In this document: one piece after another, positions 58,173 to 62,146 of the stretch | Numbering within the stretch: the stretch's first letter is position 1 | How the letters are laid out: each line of letters starts with the position of its first letter | Assembly (NCBI GenBank): GCA_017514665.1 | Contig: JAFWIX010000005.1 | Span: 26,991 to 90,990, forward strand | DNA from: Candidatus Saccharimonadota bacterium | Lineage (GTDB): Bacteria > Patescibacteriota > Saccharimonadia > Saccharimonadales > Saccharimonadaceae | Reading direction: 5' to 3' | Length of the DNA: 64,000 bases | Made by a program: the position numbers and the translations under genes | Notes under the pieces: generated by a model | The model's database searches: none | Told to the model about the DNA's origin: nothing | The model's input: only the letters and a program-made list of their open reading frames with translations

Positions 58173-59906
58173 TTACGCTTTTGGTTTAATTTTTAAATAA
58201 TTCTGAGTGTAGTTACTTAGTTCATCAAATATCGGCATTGCGTGTTTTTCGCCTTCCATATGTTGTCCTGCTCCCCAAATTTTCACCATTATTACGTACT
58301 CAGGCATTTCTCCATCCGTGCCGCCAAACCCTACATAACTAGCAATTGTTTCACCCATTGCATCAGAATAAGTACCGTCCTCTTGAACTACTTGCGCTGT
58401 ACCAGTCTTGCCACCCACAAAATAGCCAGCTTTATCTGTACCATTTGCCTGCCTAGACGCCCTGGTACCACGTAACATATTACGCATTGTTGCACTAGTT
58501 TCTTCACTAATAGTTTCACGCACTGCCGGTTTTGCATCTTTCTTCACAAACTCACCGTTTTTCATAGTCCCCGCTACTATTGTCGGTGTATAATACTTGC
58601 CACCATTAATCACCGAGGAAAACGCGCTCGCTACCTGTACCGTCGTCAAATTTAAACCCTGGCCAAACGTCATATTAGCGTAAGTCAGATCCATTGCCCA
58701 ACCATCATTTGGCTCCACAATATACCCAGGCGATTCGCTTAATTCAATATCAGTATATTGGCCTAAACCAAATCTATCGTGATAATATTCGTATAGCTTT
58801 TGTCGACCCGCTTCACTAATTTCGGTTTCCGATCCCGACAACAACCTCAAAGCCTGTATACTACCGGTATTCAAGGAATAATTTAACACTGTTTGCATAT
58901 TTATTACTCCCAGTTGTCCCTTATAGGCGTTCTCGATTTTTTCGCCATCTATTTCTACCGAACCAGTATTCGTATAAGTAGTCTCTGGCGTCATTACGCC
59001 TTCATTGATTGCCGTGGCAAAAGTAAATACCTTACACACACTAGCTGGCTCATATGGTTCTTCTATTGTGTAGTTAATAAAGCTCTTTGCATCTTCTACG
59101 TCTGCATAATTTGCTGGGTCATAATTCGGTACGTTTGCCATTGCTAAAACTCTACCATCTCTCGGATCCATTACAATTGCACTGGCATTAGTCGCCGCAG
59201 TTCGGTTTACTGCATTAGTTAAAATCTTCTCCACGCCATGTTCTAAATTACGGTCCACGCTTAAAACCACCGTTTCACCGTTTTTAGCTGGCATTCTGAT
59301 ATTATTTTCGCCAATCGACAAAATCACATTGTTAATATCTTTTGTTGTTTTCAGCAGTCCATTCTCCCCCGCTAATAGTTTATCCAAAGAACCTTCCACG
59401 CCATACTGTCCACTACCTTCCATGTTCACAAAACCGAGCAGTCTTGAAGCCAAATCACCTTCTGGGTATACTCTTCTAGTATTTTCTTGCAAAATCACAC
59501 CGTTCAAATCTGCTTCGGCAATTTTTTCCGCCGCTGCTCGTTTCACGTCTTTTGCTATCACAAAATAGCGCAATTCCTTATTCTGGAATGCCTCTTCCCA
59601 GCTAACGATTTTTTGTTCGCCCGCATTCTCGTCTATCACCTGCCTGACCTTCTCTTCATCTACGATCTTCGGATCTATAATCACCGACCATACCGTTTCG
59701 TTCATCGCTATTGGCGCCGGTTCACTACCGTCCATCATGTAAATTTCGCCGCGTTTAGCGATTATCGTATTAGTAGAAGTTTGCTGTTCGTCTGCCTTCG
59801 CCTGCCAATCATCATGCTCTACGATTTGAATGAAAAAAAGTCGAACCGCTATCACCCCTACAATTATTGCTAAACATATTTTGAGGGCCTTGTTTCGACT
59901 TTTCAT
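58173..59906 (-). CDS. ftsI: Class B penicillin-binding protein
   Basis: EPASVCK (SxxK), SLN, KTGTAQ. Confidence 0.88.
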   Translation of the reverse strand: MKSRNKALKICLAIIVGVIAVRLFFIQIVEHDDWQAKADEQQTSTNTIIAKRGEIYMMDGSEPAPIAMNETVWSVIIDPKIVDEEKVRQVIDENAGEQKIVSWEEAFQNKELRYFVIAKDVKRAAAEKIAEADLNGVILQENTRRVYPEGDLASRLLGFVNMEGSGQYGVEGSLDKLLAGENGLLKTTKDINNVILSIGENNIRMPAKNGETVVLSVDRNLEHGVEKILTNAVNRTAATNASAIVMDPRDGRVLAMANVPNYDPANYADVEDAKSFINYTIEEPYEPASVCKVFTFATAINEGVMTPETTYTNTGSVEIDGEKIENAYKGQLGVINMQTVLNYSLNTGSIQALRLLSGSETEISEAGRQKLYEYYHDRFGLGQYTDIELSESPGYIVEPNDGWAMDLTYANMTFGQGLNLTTVQVASAFSSVINGGKYYTPTIVAGTMKNGEFVKKDAKPAVRETISEETSATMRNMLRGTRASRQANGTDKAGYFVGGKTGTAQVVQEDGTYSDAMGETIASYVGFGGTDGEMPEYVIMVKIWGAGQHMEGEKHAMPIFDELSNYTQNYLKIKPKA

Positions 59907-59922
59907 AATCTATATTATATCA

Positions 59923-60276
59923 CTACTCAGCATAGCCGGCAGGAGATGCGTCCTCCATCGCCACAGCCACCTCTGAAGTTTCTGCAGCCGCAATTGAGGT
60001 TAGACGCGCTTTTTCTACTGCCAAATCTTCCTTCTTTGATTGCAAATCGACAATTTCCGTTTCGATTTCGGAAAGTTCATAATCATAGTTCGTCGCTTTA
60101 GTGCCTTGAGCCACATAAATCAGACCAACTATCAGCACGAGCAATCCCACAATCATCGCATGAGAAACCGAACCAAGCGATTTATGCTGATGGCGCACCG
60201 TATTGCGATTCCTAGTCCAAGTAGTAGTCGCAGCCATATCACCACTGCGCCTTGTCATATAAGTCTGGTTCCTCAT
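59923..60276 (-). CDS. ftsL: FtsL-like cell division protein
   Basis: Cytoplasmic tail-TM-coiled coil; lies between rsmH and ftsI. Confidence 0.6.
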   Translation of the reverse strand: MRNQTYMTRRSGDMAATTTWTRNRNTVRHQHKSLGSVSHAMIVGLLVLIVGLIYVAQGTKATNYDYELSEIETEIVDLQSKKEDLAVEKARLTSIAAAETSEVAVAMEDASPAGYAE

Positions 60277-60330
60277 TTTTTTATTTTTGTTTTTAACTCC
60301 AAATTAGTTTTTATGTTTGTTTTTTGTTTC

Positions 60331-60476
60331 CTAGTCCGGAGCGCCTACACTAGCACCACCATCGATAACTAATGCGCTACTCCGGGAAGGTCATGTAGTT
60401 TTTGACACACTCTACTGTCTAATAATCACAGAGTGGTGGACCTTATTAGGGTCCTCGCAAGTAAAATTCCGACTAA
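60331..60476 (-). ncRNA. Structured RNA element between the microprotein ORF and ftsL
   Basis: Closing TAGTCCGGA/TCCGACTA stem enclosing GGACC/GGTCC, ACTCT/AGAGT, GTCA/TGAC and CCGGAGCGC..GCGC..CTCCGG hairpins. Confidence 0.5.
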
Positions 60477-60478
60477 AA

Positions 60479-60547
60479 TCATTTGACGAACTTTACTTGA
60501 ACTTTTTGGGCACGAGATCTACTCGTAACAACGATTTTGCGTGGCAT
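60479..60547 (-). CDS. Unannotated 22-aa basic microprotein MPRKIVVTSRSRAQKVQVKFVK
   Basis: AAGGAGGG SD 7 nt upstream of ATG; TGA stop; co-oriented with the dcw operon. Confidence 0.55.
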   Translation of the reverse strand: MPRKIVVTSRSRAQKVQVKFVK

Positions 60548-60591
60548 ATATTTGCCCTCCTTTTTGTTTATGTTTTTTTGTTTTTATCAAT

Positions 60592-61473
60592 CTAGACGCG
60601 CCTACACGCTCTTAACTTGGCACTGCGCGCTCTAGGGTTGATAACTAATTCACCTTTTCCCGCAACCAGTGGTTTTTTATTGATAATCTCAAGTTCCGAT
60701 TCTACACCGTAACTTGTTGCTTCCGTCAAATAATTCTTTACCAAGCGGTCTTCTAAACTATGAAAAGTAATAAACGCCGCTCTACCACCTGGTCTTAATA
60801 ACCTCGGGATTAGCGGTAAGGTACGCTCAATTTCGTCCAACTCATCGTTTACCACAATCCGAATCGCCTGAAAAATACGCGTTGCCGGATGCGTCATTCT
60901 GTTCCTGCGCCCCTTCGCGGCAATCACTGTAGCTAACTCAGCCGTCGTATTATAGGGACGATTATGGACAATTTCGCGAGCAATTATTCTTGCTTGACCA
61001 GGTTTTTCTTCACCATATTTAATAAATATTTCCGTCAGTTCCCTTTCGCTCCACTTGTTCACAATATCAGCAGCAGTCAATTTCTGCTTTTGATCCATGC
61101 GCATATCCAACGGTCCTGTCTTTGCAAACGAAAAACCCCGCTTCTCCTCATCTAATTGCGGAGAAGACACTCCAAAATCCGCCAGTAATAAATCAAAGGA
61201 ATTTCCACACTGTATTTCCTGTAGCGCCGCACTATAAAAATCTGAATTTACAATTTTAATTGATTCACGCTGAGCGTACTTCTCTTTTAAAATCTCACAA
61301 GCAAATTCATCTCGGTCAATCAAGACCGCTTCTTTATAATTCCGCGTCACATCCAAAATTTTACTTGCGTGCCCTGCATACCCGGCCGTTAAATCTATGT
61401 ATGATTCTCCCGGTTTGGGATTCAGCACCTCAAGTACTTCCTTCAGCATCACTGGTTGATGAAGTTCTTCCAT
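60592..61473 (-). CDS. rsmH: 16S rRNA m4C1402 methyltransferase
   Basis: HQPVML, DFGVSSPQLD, GPLDMRMD, FQAIRI, TFHSLEDR, RSAKLR. Confidence 0.96.
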   Translation of the reverse strand: MEELHQPVMLKEVLEVLNPKPGESYIDLTAGYAGHASKILDVTRNYKEAVLIDRDEFACEILKEKYAQRESIKIVNSDFYSAALQEIQCGNSFDLLLADFGVSSPQLDEEKRGFSFAKTGPLDMRMDQKQKLTAADIVNKWSERELTEIFIKYGEEKPGQARIIAREIVHNRPYNTTAELATVIAAKGRRNRMTHPATRIFQAIRIVVNDELDEIERTLPLIPRLLRPGGRAAFITFHSLEDRLVKNYLTEATSYGVESELEIINKKPLVAGKGELVINPRARSAKLRACRRV

Positions 61474-61489
61474 GCTTCTATTATACTAT

Positions 61490-61742
61490 GTTTGAGATCG
61501 TTCAACTAGAAACTTTAGCGGGTTTGTGTTTGATTTGATGTTTGTTTTACTTTTGCGGCATCTACTGCAATTTATCAGCGCAAAGCTAATCTCATTTTTG
61601 CAGCCGTTGAGAGATCACCGCAGAAAAGTCATGATCATTAGATCTATAGAGTTAATTGGGAGGTGTCAATAATAGGTACCAATGGTTTTGATTACGCGTA
61701 TCCTAAACGCGCGCCAAAACTCCTAGTTGGTCGATCTCAAAC
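61490..61742 (-). ncRNA. Candidate ~250-nt structured RNA upstream of rsmH
   Basis: 20-bp terminal IR (18/20) enclosing several hairpins and an H-type pseudoknot; upstream promoter TTGCAT-17-TAAAAT (61837-61809). Confidence 0.5.
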
Positions 61743-61792
61743 TATTTTAAGGTGCAATTAATTGTTTTTTGTTTCGTGGTGTTTGTATAATT

Positions 61793-61931
61793 TTTTCCAC
61801 TTGTGCCTATTTTATACGATTTTTCAAATAAATGCAAGTACTTTTTTTGACTTTTTTTATAAAAACTTGTGGAAAAGTTTTTGGTCCTTTTTACAACAAT
61901 TCTCGCTTCAATCTGTAAAACCTGTGGAAAA
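61793..61931. promoter_or_regulatory. Cluster of DnaA-box-like sites upstream of the dcw operon
   Basis: TTTTCCACA on the minus strand at 61868-61876 and 61923-61931; 1-mismatch TTTTCCACT at 61793-61801. Confidence 0.5.
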
Positions 61932-62007
61932 CTTTCGCATTTCCCTGTTCCCGCCCGATTTGACAACAGCTAACCTTTCATGTTCTAAAAACCCGAACAA
62001 CCCGAAC

Positions 62008-62122
62008 AAAACGAGGCTGAAGCTATTATGGCGGCATTTTGCGACGACGGGAGCAACATGAGCGACGAAGCCTGTAACGACAGGCCTGAGGAGCGTCCGC
62101 TATGATAGCTTTAACTCGTTTT
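62008..62122. repeat. Multi-stem palindromic element E4
   Basis: AAAACGAG..AAGCTATTATGGCGG / CCGCTATGATAGCTT..CTCGTTTT IR; inner GCCTGT-AACG-ACAGGC. Confidence 0.65.
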
Positions 62123-62146
62123 GTCTTGTGTTATAATTAGAGTATT

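Follow-up and report, generated by a model that had tools for sequence, protein, structure and literature searches.

A class-wide microprotein gene and a narrowly distributed structured RNA between rsmH and ftsL of Saccharibacteria

The rsmH-ftsL spacer of this Saccharibacteria genome carries a cassette of two elements: a 22-codon open reading frame (ORF), which comparison with relatives establishes as a genuine protein-coding gene missed by gene callers, and, following it, an RNA that the same kind of comparative evidence establishes as a real, new and narrowly distributed structured motif. The encoded microprotein is one of a family whose members, 19-27 residues long, occur across the class Saccharimonadia and are invariably encoded between rsmH and ftsL. 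All features of the cassette lie on the minus strand of the window, by which we mean the whole 64,000-nucleotide stretch of DNA that was analysed. The first-pass annotation had described a cationic ORF of 22 amino acids, led by a Shine-Dalgarno (SD) sequence, in a cassette flanked by unstructured CAA-rich sequence, and had suggested that relatives be searched for conservation of the ORF and covariation of the RNA. The ORF is present on the minus strand (ATG at 60547, TGA at 60481-60479) and encodes seven Lys or Arg and no acidic residues, A-rich spacers lie on both sides of the cassette, and both conservation and covariation are found, far above chance, in the relatives, which are gut genomes (ruminant and mouse) of ‘Candidatus Saccharibacteria’, one of them named Ca. 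Nanosyncoccus. The genes and translation signals of the locus are as follows.

60592..61473, minus strand: rsmH (16S rRNA m4C1402 methyltransferase), 293 aa; ORF, 44-55% identical to rsmH across the phylum
60555..60562, minus strand: Shine-Dalgarno AAGGAGGG of the microORF, 7 nt upstream of its ATG
60479..60547, minus strand: microprotein gene, 22 codons plus TGA; ORF, in-frame pN/pS, and synteny in all Saccharimonadia loci examined
60277..60328, minus strand: A/CA-rich unstructured spacer preceding ftsL, 52 nt; sequence and fold, with an equivalent spacer in all relatives
59923..60276, minus strand: ftsL-like gene, 117 aa, with one transmembrane helix and a coiled coil; a homologue is found after the microORF in almost all loci that extend downstream
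58173..59906, minus strand: ftsI; ORF

The end of rsmH (60592) and the strong SD of the microORF are separated by 29 A-rich nt, and the microORF in turn lies 202 nt upstream of ftsL. The ftsL ATG at 60276, which aligns with that of relatives, has its nearest GGAG 20 nt upstream, where most relatives have GCGAGGAA 8-10 nt upstream, and a second ATG at 60258 has GAGGAA 10 nt upstream; initiation of ftsL in this genome may be weak, or may occur from the second ATG.

Several independent features of the ORF identify it as coding. When relatives were searched at the DNA level, the ORF region stood out as the best-conserved stretch of the spacer, and intact ORFs of 21-23 codons are found in all loci of the genus where the ORF could be located. 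The ORF is intact in 99 of 99 loci (83 distinct sequences), with lengths of 19-27 codons, and in all of them residue 2 is Pro, Ser, Thr or Ala, the residues that permit removal of the initiator Met. In 72 of the 83 distinct loci, a GGAG or GAGG sequence occurs no more than 18 nt from the start (median spacing, 6 nt). Substitutions are concentrated at third codon positions, pairwise differences at the first, second and third positions numbering 165/110/445 (19-codon group) and 6379/5032/14853 (21-codon group), and pN/pS is 0.20 and 0.28, respectively, in frame, compared with 1.26-1.87 in the two shifted frames. Conserved Arg residues alternate between CGN and AGA codons, and conserved Ser residues between TCN and AGY, which are unlinked codon families. 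The third-position excess, the low in-frame pN/pS and these codon-family switches together argue for selection on the protein and not on the RNA. Purifying selection extends along the length of the microprotein, which contains no run of one codon.

Every rsmH-ftsL spacer opened elsewhere in the class, whether from another genus, family or order, contained a homologous ORF of 19-27 codons with a strong SD at the equivalent position. With a loose cut-off (E ≤ 1), a first profile matched 152 of 301 genomes of the class; an improved profile, built from 25 diverse members, gave a match in 262 of 400 good class genomes at E ≤ 0.01, nearly always a single one (the 400 include one unpublished genome, G501, on which no specific claim rests). 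On inspection, diverged copies of the microORF are present in genera that the profile misses, and likewise in other orders, and two genomes of the genus that lack a microprotein match also lack an rsmH match with the query used. Outside the class, the microORF is absent at all 40 rsmH loci from other Patescibacteria classes, both by inspection and by profile, and in most of these ftsL follows rsmH directly or within ~70 nt. The family has no counterpart among known proteins in the collections searched: no family in Pfam-A or NCBIfam matches at E ≤ 10, the best profile match among PDB chains (E = 3.9) is not significant, six tested members, including the peptide of the window, are absent from a 15-billion-protein collection, and no description of the family was found in the literature searched. 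The best PDB match (profile A4, E about 4) falls on the beta strands with which the coat protein of phage fr binds RNA, and an S-x-A-Y-K-V pattern is shared with these strands. A new microprotein, one of two possibilities raised in the first-pass annotation, is thus borne out by class-wide occurrence, fixed position and purifying selection at the amino-acid level; the role in division that had been attached to it is a possibility suggested by placement in the dcw operon.

The conserved pattern of the family consists of Met, a small residue (Pro, Ala, Ser or Thr), a short strand of alternating Ile/Val, a variable and usually basic turn, often S-R-A, and a second strand K-V-K-V-x-F/V, so that the core comprises two short stretches of alternating Ile/Val (or Phe) with a variable turn between them. 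The turn is basic in most lineages and neutral or acidic in some, and net charge across the family ranges from 0 to +8; the constant feature is therefore the beta-hairpin-like hydrophobic pattern, not the charge. The microprotein has no membrane segment. It could act as a free two-stranded beta-hairpin that would dock on a partner, although the fold, like any partner, is our guess from this pattern.

An origin of the microprotein from a duplicated C-terminal tail of RsmH is a plausible lead. The tail (N-P-R-x-R-S-A-K-L-R, then the last beta strand) is encoded by the adjacent gene and shares with the microprotein a basic S-R-A / K-hydrophobic-K/R-V pattern, and the weak top matches of the profile in other classes fall on this conserved tail. 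The AF2 model of the RsmH of this genome (pLDDT 90) has the tail as its final beta strand. For 12 of 22 microproteins, the best local match inside their own RsmH (290-310 residues) is the last 25 residues. Statistical support is weak: hhalign of the microprotein profile with the RsmH tail gives P = 0.016 at a probability of about 3% (2.8%), and in a shuffle test of each microprotein with its own RsmH only 2 of the 22 pairs reach p < 0.05, one of them individually convincing (p = 0.004). Fission of the microORF from the N-terminus of FtsL was ruled out, as the FtsL of Saccharimonadia retains its own cytoplasmic tail.

Very short, division-linked proteins missed by annotation pipelines are known from other bacteria, namely MciZ of Bacillus subtilis (40 aa), which contributes a beta strand to the protein on which it acts, and SidA of Caulobacter (29 aa). 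The Saccharimonadia microprotein has no sequence similarity to either and differs from them in being located constitutively inside the dcw operon and kept class-wide, and its proposed link to division comes from gene position.

The second element of the cassette is the RNA. The 184 nt from 60510 to 60327 have a predicted folding energy of -54.2 kcal/mol, compared with -41.2 ± 3.9 kcal/mol for 200 dinucleotide shuffles (z = -3.3), none of which folds as well. A nested structure of ~145 nt had been noted after the stop codon; a structured run of ~150 nt is indeed found after the ORF, arranged not as a nest but as four successive hairpins, P0-P3. Its elements, where A1 denotes an alignment of 20 sequences from the genus and R1 a covariance model, are the following.

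60458..60499, minus strand: P0 helix, 12 bp, pairing ORF codons 17-20 (60499-60488) with 60470-60458, the stop codon in the loop; MFE and centroid folds
60434..60454, minus strand: P1 hairpin (GGACC / GGUCC), then single-stranded ACCA; covariation
60408..60435, minus strand: P2 hairpin of variable length, with conserved GAGUGU on its 3′ strand; MFE fold, outside the consensus model
60386..60395, minus strand: conserved single-stranded segment, AUGACCUUC invariant in A1; invariant columns, with GACCUUC kept in a second genus
60336..60385, minus strand: P3 stem-loop, with an outer helix (60385-60381 with 60340-60336), an inner helix and a conserved loop of 15-18 nt (60369-60352); covariation
60329..60457, minus strand: match to R1 (core of the RNA motif), 129 nt; 77.6 bits, E = 3e-15, the sole match in this genome

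Aligned across the genus, the spacer has a conserved core of P1 followed by R-C-C-A, a variable hairpin with GAGUGU, the unpaired AUGACCUUC, a two-part P3 and a GACUA-type tail. Covariation was scored on 55 distinct sequences in an alignment fitted to R1, and an unfitted MAFFT alignment gave the same helices. Overall, pairing is kept in 98.3% of cells, and compensatory double changes are seen in 13 of 15 pairs; sliding the partners by one column reduces pairing to ~50%, the slid controls reaching 53% at most. In P1, all six pairs vary, five of them with compensatory changes, at 98.8% of cells paired, and A1 has no variation in the CC of the tail; in P3, eight of nine modelled pairs show compensatory changes, at 95.6-99.6% of cells paired. 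The place of P2 is occupied by different hairpins in relatives. A TCCGGA segment had been proposed to choose between two alternative partners, a switch that was not recovered: the 3′ UCCGG (60340-60336) pairs with CCGGA (60385-60381), an interaction backed by covariation, and no second conserved partner was found. By inspection, candidate pseudoknots of the P3 loop with upstream GAGU elements or with CCACCAC show no covariation in outlier clades, and pairing of the anti-SD-like CCUUCC with either SD extends over only 4-6 bp, includes wobble and is not conserved. The G·U pairs fix the strand of the RNA as the gene strand; an antisense RNA gene on the plus strand was ruled out, as the G·U pairs of several helices would become A-C mismatches. 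Covarying structure and conserved unpaired nucleotides, the two marks of a structured cis-regulatory RNA, are thus both present.

The RNA has a much narrower range than the peptide. Of 151 genomes of the genus, 141 contain a single R1 match each, as do 98 of the 101 that are of good quality; in 150 genomes of the order outside the genus, R1 gives no match. Across 73 genera of the family, and in 25 spacers scored unfiltered, one further genus was found, with a diverged copy at the same position that keeps P1, GAGUGUGU, GACCUUC and the base of P3 and does not keep the loop. In loci of this second genus (L354-L357), one to three copies of a UUUUGACCGAUAA-like repeat occur upstream of the RNA core, the core itself carrying UUUUGACCUUC; these repeats may constitute a multi-site binding motif. 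Two relatives within the first genus (L004 and L005) contain a highly structured insertion of 385 nt (MFE about -165 kcal/mol) between the microORF and P1.

No known RNA family accounts for the motif. A cmscan of 59800-61000 with Rfam 15 at E ≤ 10 returned three chance-level matches only, and at gathering thresholds the whole window contains 3 tRNAs only. Among the candidates considered, 6S RNA has no model match anywhere in the genome, RNase P RNA and tmRNA are both located elsewhere in it, and SRP RNA has no model match genome-wide, while the RNA itself lacks a GNRA-capped helix-8-like motif. A phage or mobile origin was rejected, as a 14-mer scan of viral contigs gave chance matches, none fitting R1, and so was an independent transcript, neither a promoter-like nor a terminator-like site being found at the RNA.

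The SRP searches gave a result of separate interest. The SRP RNA models RF00169 and RF01854 have no matches in this genome, and RF00169 has none over the cut-off in 31 genomes of 13 families, with one weak match at E = 0.012. The Ffh M domain (PF02978) has no matches in 41 genomes of 17 families, and the SRP54-type GTPase domain (PF00448) none above the cut-off in this genome; control genomes all gave matches. If real, this pattern would amount to a lineage-wide loss of SRP.

The end of the microORF is predicted to pair into the first helix of the downstream RNA. P0 is retained in the closest relative through two wobble-compatible changes. In ~40% of the other sequences of the genus, a helix enclosing a GC-rich hairpin joins the stop codon, together with the 4-6 nt after it, to a GGGACUA-like segment that lies 45-60 nt further on; many compensatory variants of this helix occur. 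Because the last codons or the stop codon of the ORF lie inside a helix, a terminating ribosome would have to open it and so remodel the RNA. We consider it probable, though with some reserve, that the microprotein gene and the RNA act together to control ftsL. In such a mechanism, ribosomes finishing the microORF would open P0 and so change the RNA fold, and the RNA would serve as a cis-acting post-transcriptional control element in the ftsL 5′ UTR that would determine how stable the ftsL-ftsI message is or how well it is translated. The two may also be functionally unrelated neighbours, as the peptide is conserved where the RNA is absent.

The first-pass annotation had offered a leader peptide/attenuator as its other possibility. 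The classical form of this model is not supported, given the lack of a U-tract terminator, the retention of the peptide where there is no RNA and a distance from microORF to ftsL of about 70 to 750 nt across loci; a weaker coupling, through the pairing of the ORF end into the first helix, is supported. No terminator-like site is found on the minus strand between 60592 and 60277, and none of the hairpins predicted after the ORF in this genome is followed by a U-tract. A short translated-type ORF does lie upstream, as an attenuator has it, whereas neither a terminator/antiterminator pair nor regulatory codons in an otherwise free peptide are found. A strong hairpin follows the microORF in every family, in most cases with A-rich sequence and no U-tract after it, which argues that a structured barrier between the microORF and ftsL is ancestral and that the P1-P3 domain is a later addition. 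In one genus with neither a MraZ match nor the RNA (locus L113), the spacer has a hairpin and U-run resembling a classical intrinsic terminator.

The best-placed alternative to joint action, which we nonetheless regard as unlikely, is that the ORF is a regulatory leader (uORF) only, whose translation, and not its product, controls ftsL through RNA remodelling or unmasking of the ftsL ribosome-binding site. The helix over the ORF end and the hairpin common to all families would suit such a leader, as would the pairing between the ORF end and the ftsL SD region that RNAalifold predicts in the main clade and that one clade (two loci) has as a 13-bp compensatory version, ranking first of about 235 windows. 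Overall, this duplex has a mean z of -0.9 and is rarely the best window, being no better than other windows in most genomes and not evident in this one, and ftsL has its own SD. The amino-acid-level selection on the peptide, which holds across orders with unrelated downstream RNAs, the variable distance to ftsL and the lack of a U-tract after the hairpins of this spacer also speak against a leader whose product is irrelevant.

The RNA could instead work independently of the microORF, as a ligand- or protein-sensing, riboswitch-like riboregulator or as a processed trans-acting small RNA, a reading that we find rather improbable. Invariant unpaired nucleotides (a 9-nt junction and a 15-nt loop) combined with freely covarying helices form a pattern typical of aptamers, and the RNA is single-copy and fixed in position before cell-wall and division genes. 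It also occurs in lineages where MraZ, the usual repressor of the dcw operon, was not found: none was detected in this genome (region upstream of rsmH, about 61474-62146, minus strand), a match was obtained in 1 of 36 other genomes sampled from the genus, and none of 4 genomes from the second genus with the RNA gave one. By contrast, 22 of 24 other families of the order, and 66 of the 73 genera in the family, do have MraZ. Against a sensing function stand the narrow range of two genera, the loss of the conserved loop in the second of these and the lack of a recognisable expression platform, with neither a terminator nor a clear SD-masking helix found, or of a promoter-like site of its own. The distribution is compatible with the RNA having arisen inside a clade without MraZ, a correlation that comprises one or two events; at least three further genera of the family have no MraZ match, and at least two of the other genera without MraZ also lack an R1-type RNA. 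Distinctly improbable is a fuller proposal in which the microprotein would be a core component, throughout the class, of division or of the maturation of the small subunit. As a free copy of the RsmH last-strand region, it would dock on RsmH, the 30S subunit or FtsL, and the RNA would be a sensing riboregulator that replaced the lost MraZ in dcw control.

Least probable of all is that the hairpins are an intercistronic processing and stability element. Cleavage near the P1-RCCA minihelix would then part the ftsL message from a stable message for rsmH and the microORF, and would thereby set the ratio of the two. In favour of this reading, P1 is a GC-rich hairpin with a conserved R-C-C-A, like a minimal RNase P substrate, RNase P RNA is encoded in the genome, and the hairpins after the ORF mostly lack a U-tract. 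Against it, the stem of P1 is short (5-6 bp), one clade has the CCA engaged in P2 pairing, and the invariant GACCUUC and P3 loop are left unexplained.

Joint action of the microORF and the RNA can be set beside several known systems. In trp-type leaders and in the coat-replicase pairing of MS2, the 3′ end of a short ORF is likewise paired downstream and ribosomes must open the structure; this locus differs from them in having no terminator/antiterminator pair, no regulatory codons and a conserved peptide sequence. The mraW RNA motif (RF01746) and Clostridium-PBP RNA (RF03091) are also candidate cis-regulatory RNAs beside rsmH/mraW or penicillin-binding-protein genes, but neither matches significantly here at E ≤ 10, Clostridium-PBP reaching 19.8 bits against a threshold of 94.4 bits and resting on the SD, and the position of the present RNA, after rsmH and before ftsL, is different. 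UpsM, a 5′ UTR-derived sRNA of the Rhodobacter dcw cluster, is located upstream of mraZ and ends at a Rho-independent terminator (PMC5089854). It resembles the present RNA in being a long structured leader RNA of the dcw cluster, found in one family only and proposed to regulate division genes (PMC5089854), whereas the RNA described here lies between rsmH and ftsL, follows a microORF and has no terminator.

Saccharibacteria are ultra-small episymbionts with about 700 genes; to our knowledge, very few of their lineage-specific genes are understood, and we know of almost no regulatory RNAs in the phylum. A gene that is conserved class-wide inside the most conserved division operon, and that annotation pipelines do not see, is a concrete target for study, and its 22-residue product is within reach of chemical synthesis and tagging, for assays with RsmH, 30S subunits or FtsL. 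The RNA adds to the phylum a new structured motif with good covariation and, since the lineages that carry it are ones where searches for MraZ gave almost no match, it provides a testable instance in which control by an RNA may have replaced a protein regulator.
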